Shown one piece after another: positions 4,072 through 38,767 of a DNA stretch of 64,000 bases. Below the pieces are notes generated by a model. It saw only the letters and a list, made by a program, of their open reading frames with translations. It had not been told where the DNA came from and made no database searches. This DNA comes from an uncultured virus (IMG/VR IMGVR_UViG_3300037088_000381) (lineage: Duplodnaviria > Heunggongvirae > Uroviricota > Caudoviricetes), in the IMG/VR virus record IMGVR_UViG_3300037088_000381; one strand, given 5' to 3'. The position numbers were made by a program, and so were the translations under genes. Positions within the stretch are counted from its first letter, which is position 1. The number at the start of each line of letters is the position of its first letter.

Positions 4072-4761
4072 ATGGCCAATGTATGCAATTGTTATTTCGA
4101 AATCACTGGCCCTACAAATCAAATACAAGACCTCGGTAATAAAATCAAGACCCAGGACCCAGGTCTGGTAGGGATAGGATCTCCCAATGAAACCCCCAGA
4201 CCCATCTTCTACTGGTTCGGTGAATCTAATAACAGAAGATGCTACGGTCTGGTAGACAGTCCAGAGGACATTTTCTTAGAAGACCAGTTCATCGGTCTGG
4301 ATCTCTGCACACCCTGGAGCCCACAACACGATGACATAATATACCTATCCAAAGCTTATCCCGATTGCCTGTTCCGAGTCAGGTACGAAGAGTCTGGTTG
4401 TGAAATGTATGGCATTTCCTCCTACCTTAATGGAATACTTTCCGAACAAGTGGATATGTCCCAAGAAACTTACCTGGATAACTATGATGAAGAATACAAT
4501 GAAGCTGTAGCTTCAATTGAGGATGTGGATTATGAAAGCTTCCTCAAGAATATCCACCTCATAGATACCTTGGAAGATGATCCTGAAACTTGCAGGTATC
4601 CCGGTCTGGTAGAAAAGCAGTATCTTAAAAGATTATTAGATAAACATCTCCCCTTACTCCTCGCTCATAAATGGTTAAGTAAAACAAACCAAGATACATT
4701 TGAGCGACGTCTTAAAGGGGAACCTAAACCCTTAGCTAAGTCAGCAGAATGGACAGAATAA
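4072..4761 (+). CDS. YubB/DUF1281-like ferredoxin-fold protein with C-terminal LPLL tag
   Basis: N-terminal MANVC.C...I.G and TPWSP...LSK.YP...F...YEE.G motifs. Confidence 0.6.
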   Translation: MANVCNCYFEITGPTNQIQDLGNKIKTQDPGLVGIGSPNETPRPIFYWFGESNNRRCYGLVDSPEDIFLEDQFIGLDLCTPWSPQHDDIIYLSKAYPDCLFRVRYEESGCEMYGISSYLNGILSEQVDMSQETYLDNYDEEYNEAVASIEDVDYESFLKNIHLIDTLEDDPETCRYPGLVEKQYLKRLLDKHLPLLLAHKWLSKTNQDTFERRLKGEPKPLAKSAEWTE

Positions 4762-4762
4762 T

Positions 4763-5035
4763 ATGACCGAAGTAGAACATGAAATTAATACAGCCTCAAT
4801 TATAGGAACCCCGTACAAGGTTATCCTATTCAACGATGATGACCATGATATGCTCCAAGTAACCAATCAAATATCCAAGGCCATTTCCTGTGATGATACC
4901 AAAGCATATCTTATTATGCTCGAAGCTCACAAGAACGGTAGAGCAATAGTCTATACAGGAAGCCGTGAAAAATGCGAACACGTAGAAACAATACTGGCCG
5001 AGATAAGGTTGGGAACTAAGATCGAACCTGCATAA
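4763..5035 (+). CDS. clpS: ATP-dependent Clp protease adaptor ClpS
   Basis: YKVILFNDDDH, A..IMLEAH..GRA.V..G..E..E signature. Confidence 0.9.
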   Translation: MTEVEHEINTASIIGTPYKVILFNDDDHDMLQVTNQISKAISCDDTKAYLIMLEAHKNGRAIVYTGSREKCEHVETILAEIRLGTKIEPA

Positions 5036-5093
5036 GACTACCCTATCAAAAGTAGATTGCTTATAATCTATTAATAGACCAGTAAAAGACTCT

Positions 5094-5121
5094 GTTAACT
5101 CAAAAATAAATTTGAGTTAAC
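5094..5121. promoter_or_regulatory. 28-bp palindromic site, copy 1 (GTTAACTCAAA-N6-TTTGAGTTAAC)
   Basis: Perfect 11-bp arms; five copies in the window. Confidence 0.85.
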
Positions 5122-5143
5122 CAATTTCTCGAAAGGACTCTCT

Positions 5144-5569
5144 ATGAAGACAGATAAACCTAGTATCAATGTAATCGTTACCCGGTCTGGCCAGTTCAGG
5201 GCACGTATAGATGTACCCAATGAACCTCCCTATGAAGTAACCGTAGGTGGTGTTATGTGGAAACTAGGTAAAGGAAAAGAATATAAAGATGCCATACTAG
5301 CAAGATGCCTTCTCATTACACAAAGATTAATTGCTACCCTCATGATAGAAGCTACTAAAAATCCCGGTCTGGTAACCCTTCCAGAAAAACACAATTGCTT
5401 AACATGCAGTGTCCAGGGCAGTACAACTCAAAAATGTTGTCGTGAGTGTGTTGATTTTTCAAACTGGTGTCCCAGTCTGGAGGTAACCCCCTCGATTTCT
5501 GGCCCGATTCCAGAGGACGGGAACGAGAAATCTATACCCAAGAATGATTCAACCGCCATTTTCCCTTAG
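5144..5569 (+). CDS. Hypothetical protein with Cys cluster
   Basis: GAAAGG RBS, 141 aa. Confidence 0.6.
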   Translation: MKTDKPSINVIVTRSGQFRARIDVPNEPPYEVTVGGVMWKLGKGKEYKDAILARCLLITQRLIATLMIEATKNPGLVTLPEKHNCLTCSVQGSTTQKCCRECVDFSNWCPSLEVTPSISGPIPEDGNEKSIPKNDSTAIFP

Positions 5570-5716: not shown

Positions 5717-6107
5717 GAATTTCATTTCCATTACAAGGCCCAGAAAATCGGGGATCAATACTAATATTTTGGAAGTCACTTTCCAGAATCAAGACCGAGA
5801 ACTGGGCACTTTTTCTGGGTGAAACATATTTTCATTATTTTACCCTTGAAGATTCCCAGGTCCCGGCCTTGATGAGAGTATGGTAAGTAGTATGGGAGAG
5901 TATTAGGTAGTGTAATTGGATTATGTGATCTGGAAATGAGATTGTAATAGATATAACGAAAGGATAACATGAGTAGCCATAGTAAGAGCAATGGAATCTA
6001 TATCTCTTGGAAATATATAATCCTATTAGCCTTGATCTTCTTCCTTCCAAGTCCTTGGAAGTGGGTATTGATAGCAGTAGCTATAGGAATGATACTACTA
6101 AGGGATG

Positions 6108-6135
6108 GTTAACTCAAAAAAATATTTGAGTTAAC
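6108..6135. promoter_or_regulatory. 28-bp palindromic site, copy 3
   Basis: GTTAACTCAAA AAAATA TTTGAGTTAAC. Confidence 0.85.
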
Positions 6136-6167
6136 TTCTATATAGGGAGTAATAGAAGTAATAGTTG

Positions 6168-6195
6168 GTTAACTCAAAAAAGATTTTGAGTTAAC
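6168..6195. promoter_or_regulatory. 28-bp palindromic site, copy 4
   Basis: GTTAACTCAAA AAAGAT TTTGAGTTAAC, 60 bp after copy 3. Confidence 0.85.
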
Positions 6196-6304
6196 AGGAA
6201 TAGTGTTACAGCCGTAAAAAGTGAAAAAGTATGTCTGTCAAAAAAGTTGGGTGTGATATTAAAAATTAAACGGAGCGCCCAGAAAGTAGAAAGAGAAATA
6301 CCCT

Positions 6305-9040
6305 ATGCACAATAAACCAGTACCAGTGAAGTATCTAAGACCTAACAAGGAAGGATATTCAGTGAGGATATACCAGGCATTACCGCCTAACTACCCAAGG
6401 ACTATAGAGCCATTGGGTAAGAATGTATTGCTCTGTATGGAGCATAAGGAGCGGATGACTTACATAGCATCTATTAATGTGTGGGCATGTCCACACTGTA
6501 CTAATGGAGGTATAAACATAGCATCGGTTCCCAGGGCCTTGGCTCTGGAGCAGTGTGATATAGTTGCTTAAAGTAATAGGTAATAAGGAGGGAAGGAATA
6601 TGGCTAAGTATTTAGTTAGTGTACAGAAGTGTATGTATAGTACAGGTAAGGTTGAAGTTGAGGCGGATAATGAAGTGGATGCGATTGATGATGTACAGGA
6701 GAGGATTAATAAGGGGGAGTTACAGACGACGGGAGTTGAGTGGGGAGATATGGTGTATGAGGATTGTTCATTTGGTACGACGGGGGATGTAGACTAACCT
6801 TTATAAAGTAGGGGAGGTGTTCTATGGTAAGTGTAAGTTATGTAGAGTCACCAGTAGCGGTTAAGTTTTGTACTACGGCGATGGAGAAGAAACCTGAGAC
6901 GGATAACACACGGTTACTTGAGAAGGTCTGGAGTAAGGTTCCGTTGAGTAGGGAAGAGAAGGATAGGGTTGCTTCGATACTGTATGGGACGTTTAGTAGT
7001 CATACATCTACGTATAAGTTAATGGGATGGGCATGGGTGATGTCGTATAGTTTGAAGCGTATCCTTGTGTCGTTCACCTATGATGAGGGGGTATTTAGGA
7101 CGTTTTATGCACCAGATAAGACCTCCTTACGGAAGGTATTGAGTAGTGTAGCAGAGATGATAGAGCCTAAGCAGGAGGTTCTATGAAGTATGTAGTGATA
7201 GTTTATGGAGTATCGATGTTTGATAGTGAGGATGAGTTAGTAGCTGGGAGGTATGCTACGTTATTAAAGGAGTCAGGTTGGAAGGGTGTCTCTATAAAGG
7301 AGGAAACACTATGAGGAACATAGAGAAGTTATCGTGGGGAGATTTTATAAAGCAGTATGATGAGAGTGTTCGTAAGCAGATAGCGGAGTATAGGAATCGT
7401 CCCGGAGTGTCTGGGGTAGCGACTTTGAAGTGTGAGGTAATGGATTCGAGTAGGTTTGGAACTGAGACTGCTTTGATCTATGGGCCTGGTTGTACGTATA
7501 AGACTTTGGATGACATGGTACGTAAGCAGGGTGGAATGGGGATATACATAACGGGTTCACCATCATCGGCGTCTTTTGTGTATAATCATACGGAGGATAA
7601 GCCGTTATGAAGACAGGGCGTGGTGTAGTAGAGAAGGTTGTTAATGGTGATCTATTGGGCTACCTTGTAACGATACCTTCTGATGGGATGTATTTCTTAC
7701 GTAATGGGGATATAACGGATAAGGATGTAGGTAAGAAGGTATTGGTGGACTATGAGCCTGGTCATTTTCTTTGCACGTTTGTTTCCCGAACGGAGGGTTA
7801 ATATGAAGAGGAGTAGAGCCATAACAAAGGATAGGAAGCTAACCTTTGTCGATCAGATAATTGTTCAGGATGAGATAAAGACATTGATGAACAGTTGTGT
7901 TGAGGGTTATGATGGTACGTGGGATTGTACGACTGATGAAGGACGTGAAGGATTTAAGGCGATGTATTATGGTCTGGAGAAGATGGCGAAGCGGTTGAAG
8001 GTGGATGGTACGTTGGATGTGAAGCCTATATGAGTGGGGAAGTTAAGACGGTGCTTGAAGCTTTATCGTTTGCCCGTGACCAGATCAGGTCTGAGAATGA
8101 CCTAATGAGGACTGTAGGGTTGGTGATGTTGGATAGGATTATATTAGAATTGGGATCTGGTAAGTGTGTACGGGACAAGATTGATTTCAACACGTAGGGA
8201 GGGACGCCATGAAGAAGAGGGGAGAAGGGGTAGTAGTTAGGACTGTAGGTAGTGACATCTATGATTATGCGGTGTCGATGGATGAGGGGAACTTCCTTAT
8301 AACGAACGGGGATGAGGAAATTCGGGAAGAGGATATAGGTAAGCGTATCATCGTGAACTATGAACCTGAGTGGCCTTGTTGCCAGTTTGTATGCTTCTAC
8401 AGTGAAGATAAGAAGGAGCCAGAGGTTGACTCTTGTGATAATTGTGTTGAGAGATTAACAGGAGTAGCTGGTTCATCGTGTGATGGTTGTCCCAAGAGGA
8501 TATAAGTAATCACTTTTATCGAAAGGTATATAAGATGAAAGCAATTATTGGTTGGTGTTGTACGATTGTGGTGTTTGTGTTTGTCCTGATGTTGTTTATT
8601 GATAACAAGTACAACCACAAGATGCAGGGTCATGTGTCTCTGGCATGTAGTCAGGCGTCGAAGGAAGCTTCGATAGAGGCGACTAATGTTAAGCGGAAGT
8701 TTATTAACTTCATAGATAAGAAAAAGTAGTAATTTATTTCGGCGGGTTAATAATATATAAAGGGTACTGGATGGCCGGTATCCTTTTCATTTAACAAGGA
8801 GTGTTACCCATGCCAACAATAGTACAAGACCACAAGAAGAACTTCGAGACGTTAAAGAAAGCATTTAAGAATGGTGCTGTATGTTTGATGGATTGTGTTG
8901 AGAAGTGTAGTGGGGAACACGTAGCGGTTATATGTACTTCGATGCCTCAAGAGGATGGAGGGATGGTATTTGTTCCCTTTGCTCGATTCTTTAATGGTAA
9001 TCCATACAGTCAGTTGATACCACCAGGGGATAACACATGA
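6305..9040 (+). other. Cluster of short hypothetical CDSs (6305, ~6600, 6824, ~7311, 7607, ~7803, 8209, ~8535, ~8810)
   Basis: Tightly packed plus-strand ORFs, most with GGAG RBS; 7607..7801 and 8209..8505 are paralogs. Confidence 0.65.
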
Positions 9041-9208
9041 AGACTCTGATTAAGTTAGCGGTTTACTTTCTTTCTCGAATATTATACATCTTGTTTGGGT
9101 TACTTGCCTTGGGCATTGCCATTGTTTCATTTATATTAATTAGGTTGAAGACTCTATAGTCGTTGGCAGTATGCTTTCTGTTTAATAATTTCCCAGTAAT
9201 CTACCGTG

Positions 9209-9236
9209 GTTAACTCAAAATAAAATTTGAGTTAAC
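9209..9236. promoter_or_regulatory. 28-bp palindromic site, copy 5
   Basis: GTTAACTCAAA ATAAAA TTTGAGTTAAC, just upstream of the RBS of 9260. Confidence 0.85.
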
Positions 9237-9259
9237 CTATTTCATATAAGGAGGTCTTT

Positions 9260-12200
9260 ATGGTTCGTCGTATCCTGGATGTAGTAGAAGTTGAAACAAG
9301 GAAACCTTTCCATAGTCTTAAAGGTAATGGTACATGGAACGTATTGGAATTGTTTCCTAAGCGAGAGCTTCAGTATCTTGCAAAGATATGTAGGCTTCCC
9401 CGGTCTGGGACTCGGTCGGACATAATTAGTCGGTTATGTGTCTTTCATCAGAGTCGTTATGGTGGTTTGCGTATGAAGGTAACATTAAGATAAGGAGTAG
9501 ATATGCGGATATGTTTATTGGTTTTAATATCCTTTGTAGTAGTGTATGGAGGACAGCCTTGGTATCAGGAGTATGTAGAAGCTTCACAATCAATGATGCG
9601 GTGGTTAATGTTTCCTTGGGGGTTTTTAATTATCCTTGGGTTAGCTGTGTTGTTAATAACGAAGATCATTAAGTATGGGTATAAGATTATAGGTAGCTTC
9701 TTCAGGGATGGTATGTAATGAAACAGTATCCAAGGTTTTATGGGGACGAGAGTATTAGAACTGTGACACTCTCTGGAAGTTCTAAGGATCGACGTAAGCA
9801 ACTAAGGAAGTTATGCAAGGACAATCCAGACTGCAAGGTCACACTTCATGCTCCTATAGTTATGAAGACTCTTAATGGTGAGAGGGTTGAATGTGATGAG
9901 GCCAATGTAGTGAGGACTCAGGTACGGATAACGAAAGAAATAAGGAATGATAAGGAGGAGAATGATATATAACACTGTTCATATAAATCCTACAAAGGTA
10001 TCAAAGCATAAGGAATCGTGGGAGGTTAGTATAGATAAGAGCAACAAAATGGATCGAGAGGACACTAAAACCTTACCAAATCCTTTAGGGTTCTACCATT
10101 ACCCAGAGGCTATGAGTGAGCGAGAAGCTACTGAGACTCTTATAAAGGTTATGGTTGGTAGGCATGAAGAGGAGATAGCCAGGCTTACTGTATCTAAAAA
10201 TGCCTTATTACTTTTATTAAGCGAGGTAATTAATGATAAGGAGGGTTAGATGAATGTAGTAAATGCTGATAGAAGTAACAACGTGGAAATTGTTCCAGAG
10301 AAATGGCCTGGGTATTCTATAGAAAAGAAGTCTAGGTTTCTGCCTCCTCTAAGTTCTTTGCTTGAGAGGATTGCCAAGCACTCTGGACGTGGTGAGTATG
10401 CTGAAAATCTTAAGAGGGGTATCCATAGGAAGTTTAAGTACCTATTAGATGAATGTCTCTGCAATGACTCTATAGCGAGTATGTGTGATGATGAGGGTAA
10501 GCCAAGTATGGATAAAGCTTTTGTTATTCTTGGTAAGGCTTACATACGGTTAAACGTAATCGACGAGATCAACAAGTCAATCAATGAAGCTTTGAACAGT
10601 ATCTATGTAACACATTGGAGCAAGGAGCTCTGGGATCTAAGGCAGGTCTGCATCGAGCAGAAGAGACTTGCTGAGGAGTTGGTTCGATCCATATACTATC
10701 ATAAGGAGAAAGAGAATGAGAAATCAATTCCAGAAGTTAGTGTCCCAGGGTGAGGATGCCCGTGATAAGTTAAGGGAAGCAATCAATAACCTTCCCGAGA
10801 CGTCTGGGGTAACTAAGTTGGGTAATAACTGTGTGACTGTACCTCTGAGTCTCCTAAGTGGGCATAACAATTGGAGTCCTTCTTATTGGATCTCTAAGGA
10901 AACGAAGCAGTTGCTTTTGAATGTAGTTGATTCCAAGAGGCCCGTGGACGGGTTCATTAAGGCGATGGATGAGATTATTAAGACTGGATGTGTGATAGAG
11001 CCTAAAGCAAGTTGTTACACGAGTGCTGGGCCTAAGATTCGTATTGCTCCTAATGTATTGGAGGAGTTAAAGAAGGTCTGGAATTGTTTAGGCTGTACGG
11101 ATTACGGTAAAGAGAAGTTACCTGCAAATGAGTCTCAGTGTTTAATATGTAATCGTTTTTACGGGGATAGATACAGACAATAACCTTTTAAATGGGAGAA
11201 GTAATATGAAAATTTTGAATGGTATCCTTTTAATGAGTCCACTTGTACTATGGATAATTGTTCGTTGTGTTGCGAGTTTGAATTTCAGTGTTGATTGTGG
11301 GGGTCATATAAAAAGGGCTGCTGATGCGAATACGATTGAGCTTGCAGCTCAGGAGCTTAGGACGGTGATAACTTATTGTGATGAGCATAAACTTACGTCT
11401 GGGGTGGTGTCTATAATAATAAAGCAACCGAAGAATGATGTAGGTTTTTGGTATACAAATCTTAAGGCATCGCTTACGGAGTTAGATAAGGTGACAGAAA
11501 CTACGTCACAGCTTGAGAAGACTAACATACTTATAAAATTACGGGAGACTTTGGTGGATCATGGTCAGTCTGGGATGAGTATAACTGTACCTGATGGTAT
11601 AACAATTTACCCACACAATGTAATGTATTTTTGGTGGGCAGTAATTGGGACGTTATTAGCGTGTGTCGGTGCTGGTTTAGTCTATCAACATCTTAGTGAA
11701 TGGTAGTTTGATAATCCTTACTATGGAGGTTAGGAGTAATCATGAAACACATACTCGAAGAGTTAGCCGAAGTAGCTAAGAGTAATCTCATAGAGAATGG
11801 ATACATAGCTTCGGTTATGTTTTGGTTTAAAGGCAATCAAATGATGAGGCCCATGCTCTTCAAGGACTTTGATGATTGTAATGGTGATGATATTAACACT
11901 CGGAATGCTTTTGTAGCGGGTATCATGTCGAATAAAATGGGGGCTGACTTGGTTGTGTTACTAACCGATGCAGCTTTCAGACATATCACCGATGGAAAGA
12001 TACCTTCCTCTCCAGAGGAGCAACCTTTATCCTATCCCAGATCGATGCGAACGGAATGTATAGTTATTATTGGTATCAAGGTTCCATCTGGTGAGTCTGA
12101 TGTGATGATGGTTCCTTATAAGGGTGGAGAAGGTGAGCCTGTAGAATTTATTCCTAATGAACTACCTAAAGAAGCTAAGTTTGAGACTCGGTTCTCGGAC

Positions 12201-12976
12201 TTGGTTGTTCAAGGGTGGAAGAAGGCGAGTATGTTTCCTAGCATCGAGGCAATGAACTAAGGAGTATATCATGTCAGATAATTGTGCTGATTGTGGAAGT
12301 CACAAAATTTATCCCGACCCAGACCCGAGCGATTGGTTCTGTGATGATGATGTGAAGGTAAGGTGTGAAGCAAACGGCCAGATGATAACCGTTGGTTGTC
12401 GGCCTCATCGTGTAAGGCAGGAGTGTGAGACTCCTGAATGGTGTCCCAAGAAAGCGAAAGCAGTAAAGGTAGTTGAAGAAAGTATGAATGAGTATACAAT
12501 CGTTGGCATTTATGCTGATGTTCAACAACTTGGATCGCTCAAGTAGTATCAAGTGATCCTACCAATGCGGCCATTAAAGGAATAGAAAAGATACATGCTG
12601 CTGATAGTGTGGAAATAGAAGACATATTTGTTGTGGGTATTCTTAAAGGTCACGTTGAGATGGCCTTAATCACGGATAAGATTCTCAACTTATGGGGTCT
12701 TAATGCTCTGGCCAAGAAGGAGGGTACATGATAATCAATGTTGCACACAAGAAAAAGAATCAGATTACGGTAGACATAAGGTGCAATCAGATACGTTATG
12801 TACATGACGTTCAAGGACATGGGAAGATAGAGTTCAATGATATATCCCAGACGACTTCCGAGTGTTACCAGTATCTCTTTGAGAACAACAAGGACTCCTT
12901 CCTTGAGAGTCTGGCAGAGGAGATGTCCGACTTCTTAATGAAGGGGATCAACACGAAAGACTTGGTGATAGTATGA
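9260..12976 (+). other. Cluster of hypothetical CDSs (9260, 9503, 9718, 9947, 10250, ~10716, 11206 membrane protein, 11742, 12271, 12728)
   Basis: Contiguous ORFs with RBS or overlapping stop/start codons. Confidence 0.65.
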
Positions 12977-13383
12977 ATCGAGCAAAACTTTATGCCTATT
13001 ATCTGGAGAAGGCTGCTCATATAAACTGCATGATTGATTTGATAAACAAACTTCCTTTGTGTTCCGAGAAGAGTCCTGATAAGATCATTCGATTCCGTGT
13101 TACATACCGTACTATAAACGATTGTTATGTAGGTGATCTGTTAGCAATCCCCAGACGATTCAATACCGAGTCCCTTATTATAGATGCAGTGGCGGGAGAT
13201 GATGCCTACCCTTTATATCGTGTTCCTCTTGGAGATACTAATGAAGGGCGTATATGTTTAAAGTTTAGGGACATTGTTTCTTGGGAAGAGTTTCAAGATA
13301 TTAACTTACCCTTGTACATTACTAAACAGATAAAGACCTTCTACCTAGAGAAAGCTTTTAAAAGAGTTCAGAAAGGTAATTGA
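12973..13383 (+). CDS. Hypothetical protein with C-terminal LPLY tag
   Basis: ...DINLPLYITKQIKTFYLEKAFK. Confidence 0.7.
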   Translation: MNRAKLYAYYLEKAAHINCMIDLINKLPLCSEKSPDKIIRFRVTYRTINDCYVGDLLAIPRRFNTESLIIDAVAGDDAYPLYRVPLGDTNEGRICLKFRDIVSWEEFQDINLPLYITKQIKTFYLEKAFKRVQKGN

Positions 13384-13497
13384 TATGGATGTATCACCCT
13401 GTTGCAATAAGGATATGGAGAAAATAAAACTATCAGTATATAAATGTCCTGGCTGTGGTAAAGAATGGCAACGGACTTTTGACCCAGACCTGAACAA

Positions 13498-13893
13498 ATG
13501 GGGATGGAAGGAGTTCAAATGATTGAAATGACTGTATGGCATAACAATAACTTCCTGAAGTATGCTTTTGATAACTACACGACCATGAGTCAGTACCGGG
13601 TCCTGGGCCAGACTTCGGCGGTTAAAGTAGCCGAAGTTAAATCTGATTGTTTAGCTCAAGCGTACGAGCTTACGAATAACATTGACCGTCCTTGGACTGA
13701 GAACTCTGGAGTAAGATCGTTTGGGGATGGCAGGTCGATACGATCTACTTCAGTAGGGGATATTATATATACTCCATCTGAGACTTCCAATCTGGAGCGT
13801 GAAGGGTATTATGTGGTGGAGAATTTTGGATTCAGGTGGATAAGTAATCCTGTAGAACTTAAAAAGATAACATTTCTCCAGGCTTTAGTATGA
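13498..13893 (+). CDS. YodL-like domain protein
   Basis: RSTSVGDII...YYVV..FGF motif. Confidence 0.55.
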   Translation: MGMEGVQMIEMTVWHNNNFLKYAFDNYTTMSQYRVLGQTSAVKVAEVKSDCLAQAYELTNNIDRPWTENSGVRSFGDGRSIRSTSVGDIIYTPSETSNLEREGYYVVENFGFRWISNPVELKKITFLQALV

Positions 13894-14298
13894 ATCTAAA
13901 CGAACAACAGAAGGCCAAGCGTAAAGAAGTTTTGACGACGATGGTTAAACAATATAAAGAAAGTCACCCTTGGCTTACTACACGACAGGCTGTTTATGAA
14001 GTAGGAGAGATACTTGAAAATGATCCTGTTCAACTACGGATCATCAATGCTTTATCAGCGAGTGCTACAATAGAAGGGAGTATCAATGTTAAAGATCATC
14101 TGCTTATACAGTAGTCCAGTAATGTGGTTCACGCTCTGGTTGGTTCTTCTCTTTATCTTTGGCGCTATTCTAAAGCGAATGTTTCCAAAGATTAAAGATC
14201 ATATATACTTCGGAACTGTTGGAGTCATTACAGCAATGCTTATAATAAGTGTTGTCATTACATACAGCCAGTTACTCTTTAGCGAATAGGGAGGATAG

Positions 14299-15420
14299 AT
14301 GAGCATAGTAAGATCGGTTGATCTTTCTTTCTGTGAGGGGTCAAGCGATAAAGAATACCACATGCAGATCATCAACGGCAATGGTGGTATGTTTACCCTC
14401 AATTGCCAATGGGGTCGAAGAGGTTCCACTCTCCAGAGCCAGGGCAAGGTTGTAGATGTACCCTTAGCTAAGGCTGAAGCGACCTATCAAAAGGTATTGG
14501 ATGAGAAACTTGGTAAGGGTTATCAACTCGATCTTGAATCGGGTTCAACCTACGTAACTCCAGAGGATAAGAAGGCCCCTGTGAAAACTAAGATGGATAC
14601 CACGGGGGAACTCAAACGTAAGATCCAGATTGACTGGGGTGATGAAGAGAAACTTATCCCCCAACTCCTTAACCCCATAGAAGAAAGTGAGGTTGAAAAG
14701 TATCTCAAGGATGGTGAGTGGGGAGCACAGGAAAAGAAAGACGGCAAGCACCAGATGCTTCGGTACATTGATGCCAAGCTAACCGCCTTCAATAAGAAGG
14801 GCAAAGAGGTTGGCTATCCCAAGGTCTGGGCCGACGCCTTATGCACTCCCGTTCTCTTGGACGGGGAAGCAATTGGTGATACCTTTCATGCCTTCGACAT
14901 ACTGGAAAGGTCCGGTAAAGATTATCGGAAGTTGAAATACATTACTCGACATGCCGAGTTAACGACTGTGGAGTTCGGTGAGTCTATCAAGATTGTTCCT
15001 TTAGCTATGGGCTACAAGGATAAGAAAGCTTTATACGATCAGCTCCTCAAGGATGGTAAGGAAGGGGTAGTATTTAAGAAGCTATCCTCAGAACATAAGC
15101 CAGGCCGTCCTGCGTCTGGTGGAGACATGGTTAAGTTTAAGTTCTATTCCACGGCCTCGGTTCGAGTAGTGAAGGGTAGAGAAGGTAAGCGGTCGATAGG
15201 TATGGAGATTCTGGATGGAAGTAAGTGGATCTTCATTGGTAACTGTACGATACCTCCCAATAAGGAAGTCCCGAAGCTCGGGGACATAGTTGAGATACGG
15301 TATCTTAATTACCAGGAAGGTGGGGCATTGTATCAACCTACGTACTTGGAAGTACGAGATGATACGGACCCAGAGGACTGTGTAAAGGCTCAATTAAAAT
15401 ATAAAGTCGTAGAAGAATAA
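14299..15420 (+). CDS. WGR-domain ATP-dependent DNA ligase
   Basis: N-terminal SDKEY...QWGRRG...EKLGKGY (WGR); QEKKDG motif I, LLDGE, AFDIL, EGVVFK, KFKF; OB-fold EIRY...LYQP.Y...RDD. Confidence 0.85.
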   Translation: MSIVRSVDLSFCEGSSDKEYHMQIINGNGGMFTLNCQWGRRGSTLQSQGKVVDVPLAKAEATYQKVLDEKLGKGYQLDLESGSTYVTPEDKKAPVKTKMDTTGELKRKIQIDWGDEEKLIPQLLNPIEESEVEKYLKDGEWGAQEKKDGKHQMLRYIDAKLTAFNKKGKEVGYPKVWADALCTPVLLDGEAIGDTFHAFDILERSGKDYRKLKYITRHAELTTVEFGESIKIVPLAMGYKDKKALYDQLLKDGKEGVVFKKLSSEHKPGRPASGGDMVKFKFYSTASVRVVKGREGKRSIGMEILDGSKWIFIGNCTIPPNKEVPKLGDIVEIRYLNYQEGGALYQPTYLEVRDDTDPEDCVKAQLKYKVVEE

Positions 15421-28257: not shown

Positions 28258-28659
28258 ATGAATAAGGATGGGATACTTGAACTCAAGTTGGATTGCATTG
28301 ATAAACTTCAAGAAGAGATTGATAACATTAGGCAGCTTGAAGCAAAGCGCCTCTATAAGATCAAGGAATTAGATTGGAGTATGCAAGGTCAGAAGGATAC
28401 ACTCTTTGAAACCTGGGGTTATATAGAATGTTTCAATAAGGAATCATGTCGAGTATGTGTCGTTGCTTCAAACAATGATAGATACTCGGACAAGTCTGGA
28501 CGCCATCGGCATAATATCAATATGTTTGATTACTATAAACTTGCAAATAACGTAACCCGAGCAAAGAGAATAGACCTGCCTTTATTACTTGGCTTACCTT
28601 TCAGGTCTACCGAACTCGAACTGTTATTCAAGGGTAAGAAAATTCTAATGGATGAATAG
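28258..28659 (+). CDS. Hypothetical protein with C-terminal LPLL tag
   Basis: RIDLPLLLGLPFRSTELELLFKG. Confidence 0.7.
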   Translation: MNKDGILELKLDCIDKLQEEIDNIRQLEAKRLYKIKELDWSMQGQKDTLFETWGYIECFNKESCRVCVVASNNDRYSDKSGRHRHNINMFDYYKLANNVTRAKRIDLPLLLGLPFRSTELELLFKGKKILMDE

Positions 28660-28827: not shown

Positions 28828-29457
28828 ATGTCTCATCACACTATCATCGCTAAAGTCTGGGCTGATACGGAAGAGGAAGCTGAAGCGACAGTAGTAGATG
28901 CTATGGAAGATTCAATTCAATCAAGCCATAACTCGGAAGGGTGGAGCTACTTTGATTCAGCAACCCTTATTAATAAACTTGAACTGCCTTCAAAGTTTGG
29001 AGTTAAAACTTTTGAAGAACTTGAAACCAAACTAATAAAGAATCGCCAGGATACTATGGACTCCTTTATAGCACAGGTTAAGGATGACCTGATAGTTAAA
29101 CTGGCCCCGTACTTCCTGGATAAAAGGGAAGCTGCCCTGTACATCGACACAGAGAATAAAGAATTAAAAGAACACGTTGAAAAGATATTGAAAAAAAAGA
29201 AGGACATTGTTAAGCCTGTTACCTTTGAGGATGTCACCAATATCTTTGTAAAAATTGTTACTGACATTCCCAAAGATGATATGACTCATTCGATGACTAT
29301 GTATAGGTTAAATAAAATAAAGAAACTCCAACGCTGTACAGGCATTGCTGATATGGAAGACAGTCTGCAATGTAACGTCAATCCATTTGCAGAGTTTCCC
29401 TATGATGATGATATTCCTTTAACGGCTTATTACTTTGAATGTATACGTGGTAACTAA
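28828..29457 (+). CDS. Hypothetical protein with internal tag variant
   Basis: REAALYIDTENKELKEHVEKILK. Confidence 0.7.
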   Translation: MSHHTIIAKVWADTEEEAEATVVDAMEDSIQSSHNSEGWSYFDSATLINKLELPSKFGVKTFEELETKLIKNRQDTMDSFIAQVKDDLIVKLAPYFLDKREAALYIDTENKELKEHVEKILKKKKDIVKPVTFEDVTNIFVKIVTDIPKDDMTHSMTMYRLNKIKKLQRCTGIADMEDSLQCNVNPFAEFPYDDDIPLTAYYFECIRGN

Positions 29458-29992: not shown

Positions 29993-30334
29993 ATGATGAG
30001 CAAGAAAGCAAAGGAACTAATTAAGCAGGCAATCGAATCTTACTTGGTGGATGATGGGGCTACCGATCTGGGAAGTTGTCGTGATGCCATAACCGATATT
30101 CTACATCTTGCACACAAGAGGCTTAGAAAAAAGTATGACATAGATAATCTCTATAACCATTTGTTTCCTTCAAGCTTTAGTATTTTTAAAGACGAGCTTA
30201 TGGATGCAGAGCACAAAAGGATAGCAAGGATTAAACGTAAGGATCTTCCTCTGCACATTCACGACAATTTTGAGTTTGAAGAATCTAAAGATTTTTTAAT
30301 GGCTCGTTTAAAACACGAGGTTAGAACGGAGTAA
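29993..30334 (+). CDS. Hypothetical protein with C-terminal LPLH tag
   Basis: KDLPLHIHDNFEFEESKDFLMARLK. Confidence 0.7.
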   Translation: MMSKKAKELIKQAIESYLVDDGATDLGSCRDAITDILHLAHKRLRKKYDIDNLYNHLFPSSFSIFKDELMDAEHKRIARIKRKDLPLHIHDNFEFEESKDFLMARLKHEVRTE

Positions 30335-30790: not shown

Positions 30791-31123
30791 ATGGCACAAC
30801 CCTGTATAATATGTGGTAGGAAGATAGCACGGAAAATCAAATGCCCGAGTGGCTCCTTACATCTATGCACAGACCGTGAGTGTCTACAAGCTCTTAACTA
30901 TCGAGTCAATGATGGGGCAGTCCCAGTAACATGGTTTTGTATGCAGGAGATAAAGGATCGTGAATTAATTAATGAGACTATCTTTAATTTTTATAGTAAG
31001 GATGAATCAGTAACTTCCGATCTTGCAGATGATGTAAGTGATTATATATGGAGCGGTGAGATTTTTGGAGAAATGTTTCATGAAGCTGTAGTAGAGACAG
31101 CACAAAAACTGGAAAAGAATTGA
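30791..31123 (+). CDS. Hypothetical Cys-rich protein
   Basis: AGGAGG RBS; CIIC. Confidence 0.65.
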   Translation: MAQPCIICGRKIARKIKCPSGSLHLCTDRECLQALNYRVNDGAVPVTWFCMQEIKDRELINETIFNFYSKDESVTSDLADDVSDYIWSGEIFGEMFHEAVVETAQKLEKN

Positions 31124-31630: not shown

Positions 31631-32230
31631 ATGAGTGGAGACTTTTTAATAGCATGCTTCTGGGAAGAGATGGATGAACAACATCGGCCAGTAAAGAAAC
31701 CCGATTGGAAAAAAGGCCATGACAGTATAGATATACTCTGCGATGATATGGAAAAGAAAGGTGTGGTCGATCCAGACATCGAGCATCTCGGTGAAGACGG
31801 ATGTGGAGACCCAGAAGACATACCTGAGATTCGTAAGACTCTCCATAGGTATCTAAAGGAAGTAGAACACGGATACAACTCAAGTACCGATGACCTTGCT
31901 TACTTAGAGTTCCCTCCTTACCGAGTATGGATCACAGGAGGAACAGCTTATGGTAACAACCCAACGGAAATTTATCCTGCTATTGAGAATCTAAACCAAC
32001 TCACTGTCTTAGAAGAAGTAGGATTAAATCCTCCCCTGCTTGATTATAAAAACATCATCAACAAAATAGTTAAAGTTAAACCTCTTCAACCCCTACTCAT
32101 AGGGATTGATAATGAACTCGATTCCCTTCTTGAGAAGGAGCTTCGCAATGATACGGACATTCACAAAGGACAAGTTTGCACAAGTCGTGGCAGACAGACC
32201 CGCATCAATAAGACATCTAAAAAACTTTGA
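31631..32230 (+). CDS. Hypothetical protein with tag variant
   Basis: KPLQPLLIGIDNELDSLLEKELR. Confidence 0.7.
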   Translation: MSGDFLIACFWEEMDEQHRPVKKPDWKKGHDSIDILCDDMEKKGVVDPDIEHLGEDGCGDPEDIPEIRKTLHRYLKEVEHGYNSSTDDLAYLEFPPYRVWITGGTAYGNNPTEIYPAIENLNQLTVLEEVGLNPPLLDYKNIINKIVKVKPLQPLLIGIDNELDSLLEKELRNDTDIHKGQVCTSRGRQTRINKTSKKL

Positions 32231-33488
32231 CGATAACTTCATAGCCCGATGCCTTCATTTAAATTCTAAAGTCTACAATTTCATTGATAAAAAATTACTT
32301 ACCCTCACAGTCTTACAAGATCTTATTAACCGTATGTGTAACGAAAAGAATAAAAGATACGGGCATACTTACCCACTGGAACACTTCTCTCAATATATTA
32401 GAGACTCCCTTCCAGAAAAGTATGTACGTAAACTTTGTGTGGTACATCCACAGGCAGTAACACTTTTCTCAAAAGTATCTTATGACTTATATAAAGCCTA
32501 TGCTCTTGATCGAAACACTTACCTGGACTATAAAGACATACCAGAAGAACACAGGACAGAGGAACTACTTGCAGGTATGCTAAGTGAAAAGCCTCGGTTA
32601 GATATACCTGAAGAAGTTTTTACGGACAGCCTTGTAGATAAAATATTAAGCATGAACAGCAGCTGTTGTATCAATTTCGTTCCAGTAAACTTTATAACCC
32701 ACGACCGACTTGTCCAAGCCTTTACAAAACAACCTAAAATGGAACTGACTCGGAATGTACCTGTTGATGCTTGGTGTAAAAATCAAGTTCCCGATCTCGA
32801 CCTGATTAAGTTAGCGGCAACTAATGGATGTAATCTGGAATATATTCCTGAAGAATTTATCACAAGAGAAATGTGTCTTGAAGTAGTAAAAGAAATTGGC
32901 ACTCGAATAAAACTTGTGCCTAAAAAACTAAGGAGTAAAGAAATTGTATTAGAGGCTATGTGTTCTTGTAGCCTATCCAATATCAAAGAGTGTATACCAG
33001 TAAACATTTTAACTCGACCCTTCCTTATTGAACTGGCTAAAAGGGATGCAGTATCAAATGAATCTAAGACTCTTACTCGTGACTGGTGTTTCGGAATAAA
33101 GAACTATCAACTGGTTAAAACTATTGATACGGATGAATGGGTTGATGTGATTAATGTCTGCCCTTCTGCTATAATACTTATCGAAAAATTGCTTCAGTCC
33201 GATGCAATAATGAAAACGTTCTTTGAGAATGCTTCCATATCGGTAATCAATAAAGTAATTAACTTCCTTAACCTTGCAAAGATAAAGAAAGAATATATCC
33301 CCTACTGTATAGGGTCCGATGTAAAAGTCTTGCAAGATATTATGGAACGAAAAATGTCCTACACCCCTAAGAAAAGAAATGCGAAACCAGTAGCTCCTGC
33401 TCTGGAACTCATATCAGGTACTGATGTAGTTGGTGTTGATCTTACCGATGCTGAGTACCGAGACATCATTCACAAGTTTGGAGCATAA
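32148..33488 (+). CDS. DUF4116-like helical repeat protein
   Basis: Repeats such as LEYIPEEFITREMCLEVVK and IKLVPKKLRSKEIVLEAM; AAGGAG RBS before 32148. Confidence 0.7.
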   Translation: MIRTFTKDKFAQVVADRPASIRHLKNFDDNFIARCLHLNSKVYNFIDKKLLTLTVLQDLINRMCNEKNKRYGHTYPLEHFSQYIRDSLPEKYVRKLCVVHPQAVTLFSKVSYDLYKAYALDRNTYLDYKDIPEEHRTEELLAGMLSEKPRLDIPEEVFTDSLVDKILSMNSSCCINFVPVNFITHDRLVQAFTKQPKMELTRNVPVDAWCKNQVPDLDLIKLAATNGCNLEYIPEEFITREMCLEVVKEIGTRIKLVPKKLRSKEIVLEAMCSCSLSNIKECIPVNILTRPFLIELAKRDAVSNESKTLTRDWCFGIKNYQLVKTIDTDEWVDVINVCPSAIILIEKLLQSDAIMKTFFENASISVINKVINFLNLAKIKKEYIPYCIGSDVKVLQDIMERKMSYTPKKRNAKPVAPALELISGTDVVGVDLTDAEYRDIIHKFGA

Positions 33489-33731: not shown

Positions 33732-34208
33732 ATGAGTGTATACTTAGAACTCTTTCACGGTAGAGATAGTCCCGATAAAGACTTAGACGATTGGGGATTT
33801 CAAGGGCCAGTTCTTGGCCCTTTCCCTTTTATACAAGTTACCTATGGCGAAATTAAACTTGGGGAAACTATAACTTGGCATGAGAAAGAAGCAACCAGTA
33901 ACCCTCATTATCTCGATCCCCTCTATATAAGTAAGGACGGCCTTGTTACCTATATAGGATCTTTTTACGGAGACTTCTCCATCTTCAGTAACCCTAACCC
34001 TGAACTAAAAAAACAAATTAAAGAAACTCAAAAGGTATTCAATACAGACCCAGCTCTTTTAATAACACATGAAAGAGAATGGGTAAAGCGTTACGCCGAA
34101 TGGAGGTTTAAAAATGAACATACCAATACCAACAAACCTGGGACTACTGGTCGGAGTAAAAGACGATCGAGCCTCCGTGATAGAAAGAATATTCAAAGGT
34201 CAAACTGA
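33732..34208 (+). CDS. Hypothetical protein
   Basis: YL.LFHGR.......DWG..GP..GP; YGDFS. Confidence 0.7.
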   Translation: MSVYLELFHGRDSPDKDLDDWGFQGPVLGPFPFIQVTYGEIKLGETITWHEKEATSNPHYLDPLYISKDGLVTYIGSFYGDFSIFSNPNPELKKQIKETQKVFNTDPALLITHEREWVKRYAEWRFKNEHTNTNKPGTTGRSKRRSSLRDRKNIQRSN

Positions 34209-34908
34209 TCTTGAAACAAACCTGCTTGACCTAAGCAAGCACTGGAAAATAAAGTTGTGGTTTGATAAGGTCATCCAGATAAGAACTATACCACACTGGA
34301 CCAAGCCACAGAAAACTGAGCATGGCACAACGAGAACCCGTATCAATTATAAGAATGCCCCCGAACATACGTTCTCCCGTTTCTTTAAATCAAACGGACA
34401 GTTGTGTTATGCCCCGAGTCGAGGGGCAAAGCATGGCTACCCTTTTGAATACTTAGAGTCTATAACTAAGTATGAACCTGTAATAGAGTCTGCTTCTGCC
34501 GAGTTTAAATCTTATAAGCAATTTGCTTCTAAGTTTGATCCTCGGTTCATTGATGAGCCTACAATCAAAGACCTATGGGATAGTAAGTCTTCCCAACATG
34601 GTGGGAAGTATATGCCCTCAGACTTCCACCGCATAGGGCCACAAGGAAAGAAAGTCCTTGCTGATTTTCTTAGACTCTTTAAAGGGCTAACAGTTGAAGG
34701 GGTATGTTACTTTGAATCAAGTGATAAAAAATATAAGTATCTATCACAACAGCATCAATCTCATAGCGGACAGGGACGAGATATAAAAGTCTCACACACC
34801 CTTGGCATTGGACACGTATCCTATGCCAGTGAATATCACGGATGTGGAAACGGAAGATACGGGTTGCTGGCTAATGAAAAAGAATTCCTTTGGCTCGAAG
34901 ATGATTAA
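34114..34908 (+). CDS. Hypothetical protein with N-terminal tag variant
   Basis: PTNLGLLVGVKDDRASVIERIFKG; GGAGG RBS. Confidence 0.7.
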   Translation: MNIPIPTNLGLLVGVKDDRASVIERIFKGQTDLETNLLDLSKHWKIKLWFDKVIQIRTIPHWTKPQKTEHGTTRTRINYKNAPEHTFSRFFKSNGQLCYAPSRGAKHGYPFEYLESITKYEPVIESASAEFKSYKQFASKFDPRFIDEPTIKDLWDSKSSQHGGKYMPSDFHRIGPQGKKVLADFLRLFKGLTVEGVCYFESSDKKYKYLSQQHQSHSGQGRDIKVSHTLGIGHVSYASEYHGCGNGRYGLLANEKEFLWLEDD

Positions 34909-35894: not shown

Positions 35895-36191
35895 GGAGTT
35901 AACCATGAATATAAAAGGACAATTCGTTTCAGTATGGGAAGAAGGCGTTGTACAAACCCATTGTGAACTCGACCCTTCAACCGGAGAAGTCTTTCCAGAC
36001 TCCGTTGATACCGTTGACCTCGGAACTCTGGAACGAGAGTATTTCGAGACCAAGGACGGGGATGAACTTGAAGTATGCCCCACCTGTCATGGGTATATAC
36101 TTAAGACCGTAATGAACCCGGGTATCGGGCATGACCTTAACGAAGAAAATGAATGCTCTGATCCAGAATGCGAATCACATGAGGAGTAACC

Positions 36192-36818
36192 ATGAGTGAG
36201 CCAATAGGTATAACAATAGAGATTGGTGGGGATCTCCCTGCCAATCGTATTGAAGGGTTCTTAGAAGCACTTAGAAGTGAGTGCTACGATGTTGTAGGAC
36301 CATCAACAGAAAATGAATTACGAAACAAAACAGGTAGGAATCAAACAATAAAAATCAATGCCACGGCTAACTTCGGAAACTGTGACGACCTGATGATCTT
36401 CTGCCGTAAAAATAAACTCGGGTACATTCACCACTGTGAAGCTAAGTATGAATATGAGGCCGAGATTACTTACTGGGTTCCAGGAATGAAGAAGGCCAAG
36501 AGCCTGAGAGCTGACCAAGGAGGAACAGCACTTATTAATATCGAGTATGTCAAACCTGTTACCGATTTTCTTTTTAAATATCTTAATGAAGGTCCAACAG
36601 TATTCCCTCTTCACATTAATGAAGACTCTTTAAAATCAATAGCCGAAAAATGTTTAAAAGCCACAACACAAAAACAAATTCTTGGAGTCTTTGAAAGGAA
36701 GTTCAATGAACTCCTTCCAGGGAGACCCAGACTCGACCCCTTTAATATTGTGGAGGAATCAAATGTTAACTCCAGAACAATATCGAAAAGCAAAAGCGGA
36801 ATCAAAAAGAGCACATAA
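36192..36818 (+). CDS. Hypothetical protein with tag variant
   Basis: VFPLHINEDSLKSIAEKCLK. Confidence 0.7.
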   Translation: MSEPIGITIEIGGDLPANRIEGFLEALRSECYDVVGPSTENELRNKTGRNQTIKINATANFGNCDDLMIFCRKNKLGYIHHCEAKYEYEAEITYWVPGMKKAKSLRADQGGTALINIEYVKPVTDFLFKYLNEGPTVFPLHINEDSLKSIAEKCLKATTQKQILGVFERKFNELLPGRPRLDPFNIVEESNVNSRTISKSKSGIKKST

Positions 36819-37641
36819 AGAAATTGATTTAAAAGATAGTAAAAAGGATAAAGATATTTCCACAATCCAGTATGATGTCTACAGACCAAAAATACATGAG
36901 CTGGAAAGATTACGTGATGAGGAAGTTGAAAAAGTAAAAAAGAATTTCTCCGAATTTAAAACAAAGCGTGAGCAGGAAAACCAACCTAACATAGAAATAA
37001 TAACGGCAACGAAAAGGATCATGAGTCTATTTGAAATTATTATCCATACTCCTGATCTTGCTCTTGAAGTTTATACTTACTCAGACCGTGATGATAATGG
37101 AAACTATTTAAGAGGAAACAGACGACAGATTCACTACACCTCAATCGATACCATCGCCCAAGACCAGTACAAAAACATTCAAGTTTATATCGTACCAAAT
37201 AAAAAGCCTATAAACAAATTCTCACTTACGATAAGGGGTAACAGTTTATTTGCCAAAGTGCTAAATGATGAAAGAAGAAATGGTTATATAAACGGTCTCA
37301 ATGGAAGGTCTGACCTATCAATTGTTTTAAAAGAAGGACCTAGAGCTGAGGACTTAAAAAATTATTATGAAAAGCGTAAGGAAAATACACTATTAGATTT
37401 CCTTGCCACCCATACCAAGGTAGAGTCTGAGTACGAAGAGGCCAAGAAACTTTTCAAGGCTCTCGAATGGAAGCTCCTTTATATAGAGCATCTAATCGAA
37501 AACCATTCTGATAACGCTGATTTTAAAAAGCTTCATAAAATACTTTCAACCAATCCTCGAAACCTTCCCCTTCTTACCGGGCAATTAGAATCTGACACAG
37601 GAAAGGATTTACTTGAATACTTTTTCAAGGAGCAACATTAA
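36763..37641 (+). CDS. Hypothetical protein with C-terminal LPLL tag
   Basis: GGAGG RBS before 36763; ends PRNLPLLTGQLESDTGKDLLEYFFKEQH. Confidence 0.7.
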   Translation: MLTPEQYRKAKAESKRAHKEIDLKDSKKDKDISTIQYDVYRPKIHELERLRDEEVEKVKKNFSEFKTKREQENQPNIEIITATKRIMSLFEIIIHTPDLALEVYTYSDRDDNGNYLRGNRRQIHYTSIDTIAQDQYKNIQVYIVPNKKPINKFSLTIRGNSLFAKVLNDERRNGYINGLNGRSDLSIVLKEGPRAEDLKNYYEKRKENTLLDFLATHTKVESEYEEAKKLFKALEWKLLYIEHLIENHSDNADFKKLHKILSTNPRNLPLLTGQLESDTGKDLLEYFFKEQH

Positions 37642-37932
37642 ATGGGTAGTGATCAATTTATTATAGCATCCAAAGGTAAGACTGCTCAAGAAGCTTTTGT
37701 TAATGCAATACAGGATGCACAATATAAAAACGGCCATAACGGGTACACAGGAACGATAGCTGAGAAGAGTTCCTTTATAGAGTTTCCTTTTCCAAACGAT
37801 AAGCCTTTAAGAAAGTACATCGATGAGTTAATGGCAAATGAAATTGAAGACAAGTGGGGGCCAGCAGGATGTATAGCATTCAAGCCTGGTCACCCTGATG
37901 AGTTTATCTTTTTCGGTTGGGCATCCTGTTAA
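37642..37932 (+). CDS. Hypothetical phage protein
   Basis: GH.GYTGTIAEK...DKWGPAGCI...FFGWAS. Confidence 0.7.
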   Translation: MGSDQFIIASKGKTAQEAFVNAIQDAQYKNGHNGYTGTIAEKSSFIEFPFPNDKPLRKYIDELMANEIEDKWGPAGCIAFKPGHPDEFIFFGWASC

Positions 37933-38179
37933 GGAGTAACAATGAAAAGTAAATTAATATTAAAAGGTAAGCAGTACACGGACGGTAAGGGAAGCATTCG
38001 GGAAGTCCTTGATGTTGGTCCTCAGTATGTCTTATACCAAGGCCAAGCCGAGACGGATAACCTACAGTACAAGCTCTTAGTAAAGAAACGTGGCCCTTTA
38101 ACTGTCGGCCATTGTTATAACTCTACCAGGTCTTCTTTCGCGGCCTGGGCAAAGTCGGAGATAGTAAAGGAGTAATACT

Positions 38180-38767
38180 ATGGGTGAGTGTGCTTATTAT
38201 TTCAAAGCAGAGTTCCCTACAAAGAAGGAAGCTCTGGCAGCATCAAAGAAACTTAATAAATTCTTTCTACAAGCAAGGCATGCCTATGACTACTGGCAGA
38301 ATCCGCTTGCGTTGCTGAAAGATCAACGCTTTCCGATTGCCCAGTTAGACAATAAACTTTTCTGGAATACCTTTCAAGAAAGGTACCCTCTTGTTACGGA
38401 GTATGTAAAGCACGAACAGTTATTTGGACGTGATCCAGGTGTGCTCAGTAGGAAGTTAGACTTCGGACAAACCTCAGATAACGAAACTATTCTAATTGGA
38501 GACACTGTTGGATGGTGTGACTCCAGTGTAGGTCACATGAGTGATTGGTCCCCACTGTGTGCCTTTGTAAAAGAAGTGTATGGTGCAGTCAGAGCAGTCT
38601 ACGGGAATGAAGAAGACGGCTGTGCAAGCTTAGAGTCTTTAAATCTTTATGAGTGGGAAGACATTGTTAAAGCAATCCTTAAACAGAAAAAAGTTCTCCC
38701 ACTTCTCCTTCACGTTAATAATGATCTGGATGAACTTATAGAAAGAACAATGAGGAATAACAAATGA
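38180..38767 (+). CDS. Hypothetical protein with C-terminal LPLL tag
   Basis: KVLPLLLHVNNDLDELIERTMR. Confidence 0.7.
   Translation: MGECAYYFKAEFPTKKEALAASKKLNKFFLQARHAYDYWQNPLALLKDQRFPIAQLDNKLFWNTFQERYPLVTEYVKHEQLFGRDPGVLSRKLDFGQTSDNETILIGDTVGWCDSSVGHMSDWSPLCAFVKEVYGAVRAVYGNEEDGCASLESLNLYEWEDIVKAILKQKKVLPLLLHVNNDLDELIERTMRNNK

Follow-up and report, generated by a model that had tools for sequence, protein, structure and literature searches.

A Portable Tag, Predicted to Fold into Three Helices, on Unrelated Small Proteins of Large Uncultured Phages

A 64,000 nt stretch of DNA from an uncultured member of the Caudoviricetes (IMG/VR record IMGVR_UViG_3300037088_000381), here called the window, encodes a series of small, otherwise unrelated proteins that carry a common tag with a Leu-Pro-Leu (L-P-L) core. 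The tag on these proteins is real, and domain shuffling has spread it to dozens of unrelated small accessory proteins within one clade of large uncultured phages. From structure prediction it looks like a small portable domain of 30–40 residues with three helices. The tagged genes lie in arrays around genes for a ClpS-family adaptor, a MoxR-type AAA+ ATPase (AAA_5) and a DUF2201 protein, hereafter the trio, which are the leading, still tentative, candidates for a partner on which the tag may dock.

Detection of the Tag in the Window and in Related Contigs

The first-pass annotation had reported a peptide on about 17 window proteins, and each peptide that it quoted was found at the gene named (Table 1; genes are called by their first position). 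A strict pattern, LPL[LFYHT][LIVMT]-x6-20-[EDQSK]xx[LFM][KR], occurs in 9 of the 119 window proteins, compared with a mean of 0.046 (maximum 1) over 500 residue shuffles, which makes the motif commoner than in a shuffled proteome; a looser pattern occurs in 13 of 119, compared with a shuffle mean of 0.41 (maximum 5). Both patterns were written post hoc, after inspection of the data, and independent tests were therefore sought. A hidden Markov model (HMM) trained on the 14 window copies alone (seed-only HMM) detected eight further open reading frames (ORFs) in an unrelated contig, L004, at 12.9–19.7 bits, as well as the DUF1281 orthologues in L002 and L003; on the opposite strand no score exceeded 6.7 bits. 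At 10 bits or more, the iterated HMM gave 15 matches in the window, nine in L004, five in L006, three in L005 (eight at 7 bits or more) and one each in L001, L002 and L003. All 35 of these 35 clade matches lie on the gene strand. With the same model the best score in a reversed-sequence control was 6.2 bits, and 54 other DUF2201-encoding phage loci (887,605 bases, six frames) yielded a single match of at least 10 bits.

The 15 window matches comprise the 14 training copies and one alternative-frame ORF; the scores of these 14 strong copies (20.8–29.1 bits) are circular because the same copies trained the model. Among the 74 ORF candidates that start at 4–39 kb, 14 carry a strong copy and one (33732) a weak copy. 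The count of about 17 thus proved somewhat high, with the main frame of 28828 scoring ∼5–6.5 bits and 32148 giving no match. An ORF at 28898–29032 on the + strand, 45 codons from its ATG and set in another frame within the 5′ portion of gene 28828–29457 (a 209-residue ORF), encodes little beyond a tag-like peptide, which scores 15.5 bits with the seed-only and 24.5 bits with the iterated HMM. It may be a genuine peptide that consists of the tag only, a relic of overprinting, or the result of a frameshift or of an indel in the assembly. The confinement of the tag to 4–39 kb holds, as no window match of at least 10 bits lies outside 4042–38764, and Pfam and HMM scans found no tag in the Cas proteins and recognizable enzymes of the window, in line with the initial description.

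Modularity and Spread of the Tag

With the tags masked, the best pairwise phmmer E value among the 15 window bodies was 0.012, and no pair matched at E < 0.01; several pairs of the unmasked proteins match through the tag alone. Where the bodies match families in Pfam or PHROGs, these differ (DUF1281_C, Kyano_Gp96 and phrog_3906). The tag is therefore modular and sits on otherwise unrelated proteins, as had been proposed. Its usual place is at or near the C terminus, but there are also an N-terminal copy in 34114 and an internal one in 27322. Gene 30791–31123 is untagged, whereas its orthologue in L004 (18807–19232) is tagged, and the pair represents a natural gain or loss of the tag.

The same picture emerges from other metagenomes. 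Six independent phage contigs carry the tag, and a word-seeded search returned 16 proteins, including orthologues of window families. An exhaustive profile search of 1.84 billion representative proteins gave 99 proteins at E ≤ 0.001 (best 5.7e-8), and the library clusters that were looked up are metagenomic in 10 of 10 cases. Although the profile holds no positional information, the C terminus lies at most 5 residues beyond the tag in 78 of the 97 library matches of at least 12 bits, at most 15 residues beyond it in 90 and at most 35 in 96. After masking of the tags, the 99 library proteins fall into 50 BLAST groups, with sizes of 23, 13, 8, 5, 3, 2 and 2 and 43 singletons, some of which are short fragments. 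Pfam, run on 94 of the 99, recognized DUF1281_C in 18, a sub-threshold DpnD/PcfM in one and no family in the others; the DUF1281 family is favored in this search because it supplies 6 of the 41 profile rows. The library matches also include tag-only ORFs of 44–62 residues, some of them perhaps fragments, and P0025, P0028 and P0045 are fusions of the order body-tag-body-tag. In P0022, P0107 and P0096, three or four near-identical copies of a small tagged protein are joined head to tail; these may be assembly artifacts or real tandem gene fusions.

Anatomy, Predicted Fold and Conservation

The anatomy of the tag was read from 41 aligned copies and the HMM match lists, with a profile of 37 positions. 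A Pro, usually 3–5 residues upstream, and one or two acidic or polar residues precede the L-P-L core, each residue of which is conserved in >90% of the 41 copies. The core continues as [LYFH]-[ILVM] and is followed by 8–14 residues, often with a Trp or Phe, and then by a helix of the form hydrophobic-E-x-[RK]-[LF]-[KR]-[G or polar]. In outline, a short predicted helix bears the near-invariant L-P-L, and a loop, often with the Trp, leads to a longer helix whose end reads h-E-x-R-L-K-G. Polar linkers flank the whole.

AlphaFold2, given the tag alone (47 residues, 41-row alignment), predicted helices at residues 2–12, 15–21 and 29–40 with a mean pLDDT of 82 and blocks near 90. In the model of the whole 4072 protein, the tag helices lie at residues 190–196 and 204–215 (block pLDDT ∼83–85) and are those of the tag-alone model. 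The peptide of about 25 residues described at first is present, but it looks like part of a 30–40-residue unit that AlphaFold2 folds alone rather than a short disordered signal. A fold search with the tag-alone model found a common helical arrangement only (best VIA-align Z 4.2, best Foldseek E 8.9), and one with the 4072 model gave only a weak match to Api92, for the body. In the ESM Atlas, the tag region had no usable feature match, and the structure search returned only short helical look-alikes.

Selection acts on the peptide, as had been suggested from the differing codons of the copies. At the conserved L-P-L, the 41 copies use every one of the six Leu and four Pro codons, and the contigs that carry the tag span 36%–53% GC. 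In three window genes, the codons for a terminal K-G-E or K-E also supply the ribosome-binding site for the gene that follows. The ending is, however, unchanged where 14–94 residues follow it and in the N-terminal copy, and because long-tailed, internal and N-terminal copies all keep it, the overlap with ribosome-binding sites fails to explain it. An origin at the DNA level, be it the shadow of a promoter or ribosome-binding site or a recombination linker, was rejected in view of the free codon variation, the GC range and the copies that lie far from a next gene.

In 14 comparisons of orthologues, the tag was conserved at least as well as the body in eight and less well in six. In the most diverged pairs no other part is kept as well as the tag: 31631 and its L006 orthologue are 64% identical over the tag and 31% identical over the body, and 36763 and its orthologue P0008 54% and 31%; the corresponding values for 12973 and its orthologue P0021 are 91% and 81%. 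The tag of 4072 is kept in orthologues down to 39% identity, and that of 16848 in L004, P0014 and P0017. Placement is kept as well: the window and L004 members of the 34114 family both have the tag at the N terminus, and the L006 orthologue of 36192 has an identical layout, with the tag followed by the extension. P0026 and P0033, whose relation to 29993 was read by eye from a common N-terminal sequence, are also tagged.

No described family corresponds to the tag. Pfam (E up to 0.01) and PHROGs matched the bodies of tagged proteins but never the tag, NCBIfam gave no match for 22 queries that included the tag alone, and the best E value of the tag profile against PDB sequences was 0.66. A literature search on DUF2201, DUF1281, phage ClpS and N-degrons, and C-terminal motifs of huge phages, at the level of titles and abstracts, found no description of it. 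This agrees with the first-pass annotation, which knew of no family for the peptide.

Gene Neighborhood of the Tagged Genes

Wherever a locus is long enough, its tagged genes are arrayed on a single strand around AAA_5 and DUF2201, in most cases with ClpS as well. Orthologues of the window's DUF2201 gene adjoin tag arrays in L002, L004, L005 and L006. The order in L004 is DUF2201, two tagged genes, ClpS and then ∼12 tagged genes. In L005, AAA_5 and DUF2201 are followed by ∼17 genes with a recognizable core, only eight of which reach 7 bits, and in L002 by a small gene, a tagged gene and the end of the contig.

The nearest viral contig, G001 (68,110 bases), has genes for an endolysin, a large terminase, an RNA-polymerase-beta-like protein of 2088 residues and a protein part of which resembles a head protease. 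These phage genes and the size of the contig record to which the window proteins belong, 474,422 bases, indicate that the window is a fragment of a huge uncultured phage. All nine tag matches in G001 lie on one strand at 11.3–20.5 kb, flanking ClpS, AAA_5 and DUF2201. Apart from this trio, the window and G001 have in common just two tagged families and one small protein without the tag; the trio is thus the constant element, and the set of tagged genes varies. Among the loci, a clade-specific ClpS HMM matched in the window, L001, L004 and L006 only, with one weak match elsewhere, and alignment with ClpS of solved structure showed that the clade protein keeps the N-D-D and H positions. A scan of viral contigs with the ClpS alignment returned G001 again and one distant ClpS locus.

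Searches of phage and plasmid records found nothing close to the window, with similarity at the level of RtcB only. A first GTDB scan gave no relatives, and the one match of a second, in a Bifidobacterium record, was judged spurious (a high-GC ORF without the tag). Scans of viral contigs with the 18858 protein, alignment A1 or P0090 as query had no matches. The idea that other DUF2201 phages have tags of their own was also considered, and a de novo scan for C-terminal motifs found a common ending in L007, L011, L013 and L019. There, overlapping genes encode proteins of ∼60 residues that end in L-E-[VL]-I-[SN]-E-S-R before the stop. Because these proteins look like one paralogous family, the ending is no tag on unrelated bodies, and the candidate was dropped.

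A Possible Docking Function and Its Alternatives

We lean toward the view that the tag is a portable docking domain, a handle by which one common partner recognizes many clients. The neighborhood of the arrays, together with the pattern of a constant machine and a variable cargo, points tentatively to the trio as that partner. The first-pass annotation had listed the phage AAA/ClpS machinery among the possible hubs; the arrays that adjoin ClpS, AAA_5 and DUF2201 lend that choice support from gene neighborhood, and the hub itself is putative. Capsid packaging, a replication compartment and a host complex, which it named as well, are conjectural. The tag would dock small client proteins onto the one partner, and the trio would remodel, process or remove them on schedule. 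On this tentative scheme the trio could be a phage-encoded client-processing machine with the three-helix tag as its universal client handle. The phage clade would plug ever-changing small host-takeover or anti-defense proteins into one machine that activates, remodels or destroys them on schedule, a form of phage-owned proteostasis in which the machine stays constant and the tagged cargo is exchanged.

If true, the scheme would represent the first tag-addressed system for protein processing that a phage encodes, and DUF2201 would gain a function. The genes of huge phages are mostly small and of unknown function, and a common handle would group dozens of them into one functional class. The tag might also serve as bait for its reader or as a search key that lists clients in metagenomes, and a compact fold of ∼40 residues, predicted to be autonomous, may interest protein engineers.

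Several observations weigh against the trio or against docking itself. The AAA_5 and DUF2201 pair is common in phages without the tag (the 54 other loci) and is to that extent independent of tagged clients. The distant phage ClpS locus has no tags, and L005 is rich in tags yet has no ClpS in its 20.6 kb. Because DUF1281 or DUF2201 genes led to the related loci, sampling accounts for part of the neighborhood link, and gene order among related phages can persist by descent alone. The conserved residues of the tag are mostly hydrophobic or able to form salt bridges within the domain; its conservation may reflect folding rather than a binding face.

The presence of ClpS invites comparison with protein degradation. 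Known degrons (the ssrA tag, the SspB tail and ClpS N-degrons) are short, unstructured and bound to the extreme terminus; a ClpS N-degron requires Leu, Phe, Tyr or Trp to be exposed at the N terminus, with no stabilizing residue in second place. The likeness lies in a terminal tag that an AAA+ machine or its adaptor recognizes, with ClpS and AAA+ genes as constant neighbors here. Unlike an ssrA-like degron, the tag tolerates tails of 0–94 residues (12–94 in 4072, 27322 and 36192), is N-terminal in 34114 and is internal in P0025, P0028 and P0045, and unlike a ClpS N-degron, the tags lie within the chain. A route in which a cut before the core Leu creates a ClpS N-degron was set aside. The second residue would be the core Pro in >90% of the 41 copies, and a large E. 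coli screen describes Pro at this position as "universally stabilizing" (PMC12258705); a Leu-Pro start would on that account be a poor ClpS substrate in E. coli, which is a further point against the trio. The route is also unlikely because a cut in a C-terminal tag would mark the tag fragment alone.

In logic, the closest analogy to a docking tag is the dockerin-cohesin pair of the cellulosome, where a small folded terminal domain docks many proteins on one scaffold. Dockerins are calcium-binding domains of ∼70 residues with a duplicated loop-helix motif, found on secreted enzymes. The tag differs in its length, in the absence of a Pfam Dockerin match on any tagged protein and in its clients, in which Pfam recognized no secretion-related domain; no scaffold with repeated receptor domains was identified for it. 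The cargo-loading peptides of encapsulins and the encapsulation peptides of microcompartments, ∼10–20 residues long, fold only on binding, and their genes adjoin that of the shell. They resemble the tag as short terminal modules, usually joined by a linker, that occur at either terminus of unrelated clients and are read by one partner. The tag is nevertheless longer, of a different sequence, predicted to fold by itself and adjacent to ClpS, MoxR and DUF2201 genes. No capsid-like or shell family was seen in the tag arrays, where many neighbors have no family and the genomes are partial.

These comparisons bear on an alternative in which the tag is a signal for loading into the virion, binding the capsid interior or a scaffold; its carriers would be packaged and then injected along with the DNA. 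The phage nature of the element (the terminase, head-protease-like region and endolysin of G001) would suit such a signal, as would clients that are small accessory proteins, two of whose bodies belong to families of mobile elements (DUF1281_C and the sub-threshold DpnD/PcfM), and placement at either terminus, which is compatible with cargo tags. The T4 capsid-targeting sequence is likewise a phage-encoded address common to unrelated accessory proteins; it is N-terminal, comprises ∼10 residues and is cleaved off by the prohead protease, which cuts at (L/I)-x-E, and by eye the tag helix often reads hydrophobic-x-E. The tag, however, is mostly C-terminal, longer than known cargo peptides, predicted to fold and not known to be cleaved. 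In G001 the terminase and the head-protease-like gene are on one strand, and the tagged genes, together with ClpS and the AAA+ gene, are on the other; no capsid or scaffold gene was recognized next to the tagged genes in any locus. Virion loading is considered unlikely. A quite unlikely alternative, given the clustering of tagged genes around one constant trio, which it would leave unexplained, is a mini-domain that acts by itself, by oligomerizing or by binding nucleic acid or membranes, and needs no separate reader. The predicted autonomous fold, the occurrence at any position in the chain and the tag-only ORFs would all be expected of it, but the tag shows by eye neither a strong net charge nor an amphipathic membrane pattern, and no structural match to a known binding domain exceeds Z 4.2.

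Mimicry of a host hub motif, in which the L-P-L-L-I core would plug into a pocket such as that of the sliding clamp or the groove of Hsp70 and so bring effectors to it, draws on the hydrophobic L-x-L-L core with charged flanks at protein ends and on its resemblance to the clamp-binding consensus. That consensus, QL[SD]LF or QLxLxL, can stand at either terminus and has Gln as its hallmark. In the tag, D, N, E or K usually precedes the first Leu, and Q does so in about one of the listed copies, as judged by eye; five or six residues would suffice for such a motif, yet a further helix of 20 residues ending in R-L-K-G is conserved, and the profile search of the 1.84 billion proteins gave no known replication or chaperone families among the 94 matches run against Pfam. 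Mimicry is very unlikely. It is barely credible that nothing portable exists and that the tagged proteins are paralogues of a single old family that evolved so fast that only their C-terminal helices are still recognizable. Tandem arrays of small ORFs on one strand are typical of duplicated families, and clear paralogue arrays do flank DUF2201 in other phages. Against common descent stand the masked bodies, which differ in size (58–452 residues) as well as in family and lack a phmmer match better than E 0.012, the family that is tagged N-terminally, and the orthologue pair with and without a tag.

Other Features of the Window

Nearly all window genes lie on the + strand. Their positions, and those of the tag copies, are collected in Table 1.

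Table 1. Positions of the Tag Copies, Neighboring Genes and Paralogue Arrays
Feature	Position	Strand	Gene and placement	Bits	Remarks
Tag	4615–4731	+	4072–4761, C-terminal end, then 14 residues	29.1	Body DUF1281_C (Api92-like)
Tag	13273–13374	+	12973–13383, C-terminal	22.4	
Tag	17190–17288	+	16848–17294, C-terminal	24.5	
Tag	19461–19568	+	18858–19571, C-terminal	21.8	Terminal KGE overlaps ribosome-binding site of gene 19577
Tag	20764–20868	+	20512–20883, C-terminal	25.4	Variant; L-I-L replaces L-P-L
Tag	25393–25491	+	24697–25494, C-terminal	21.7	N-terminal domain of body Kyano_Gp96-like (Pfam)
Tag	27553–27663	+	27322–27939, internal (residues ∼86–112 of 205)	25.7	Followed by 94 residues
Tag	28543–28647	+	28258–28659, C-terminal	20.8	
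Tag	30212–30328	+	29993–30334, C-terminal	27.6	
Tag	32054–32161	+	31631–32230, near C terminus	22.4	
Tag	34029–34127	+	33732–34208	8.8	Weak, degenerate
Tag	34105–34212	+	34114–34908, N-terminal	22.2	
Tag	36570–36674	+	36192–36818	26.0	Followed by 50-residue extension, first part conserved
Tag	37531–37638	+	36763–37641, C-terminal	23.6	
Tag	38663–38764	+	38180–38767, C-terminal	25.2	
ClpS-family adaptor	4763–5035	+			Pfam ClpS E 1.8e-17; directly 3′ of first tagged gene; trio member
WGR domain fused to ATP-dependent ligase domain	14299–15420				Pfam/PHROGs; untagged, inside tagged array
RtcB RNA ligase, full-length	17282–18601				Pfam/PHROGs; untagged, inside tagged array
MoxR-type AAA+ ATPase (AAA_5, phrog_1297)	21830–22975	+			Mid-array; orthologues of 34%–50% identity in L002, L004, L005 and L006
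DUF2201 protein: putative zinc metallopeptidase (zincin) and VWA-like domain	23018–24322	+			Pfam
Phosphoesterase	26178–26696				Pfam/PHROGs
DUF4116 repeat protein	32148–33488				Pfam/PHROGs
Type I cas operon	40448–48240				Pfam/PHROGs
Short CRISPR array	48278–48548				
FtsK	56317–57522				Pfam/PHROGs
Cdc48-like AAA ATPase	62578 onward				Pfam/PHROGs
Arrays of ∼60-residue paralogues (examples)	L013, 2888–4156 and 7020–7525; L019, 103–2247				

The CRISPR-Cas locus (40448–48548) is a phage-borne type I system of mixed make-up. A large first gene without a family is accompanied by genes for Cas7 and Cas5, both of the I-C/I-B kind, and for Cas3, a Cas6e-like protein, Cas1 and a Cas2 of I-E type, and within the ∼60-base unit of the array lies a palindromic repeat of roughly 28 bases.

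The feature neighbors of gene 34114 in the ESM Atlas are clusters (scores 0.94–0.95) whose few labeled members are Nanobdellota archaea; these labels may come from phage contigs binned there and say nothing firm about the host. GC skew is strongly positive at 6001–14000, with values of 0.42, 0.33, 0.28 and 0.18 in successive 2 kb windows, and is ∼0 in the neighboring regions. The small ORFs of this segment have no family matches, and apart from that of gene 4072 no tag lies before 12.9 kb. Positions 1–201 of the window form a perfect tandem repeat with 2.7 copies of a 74-base unit.

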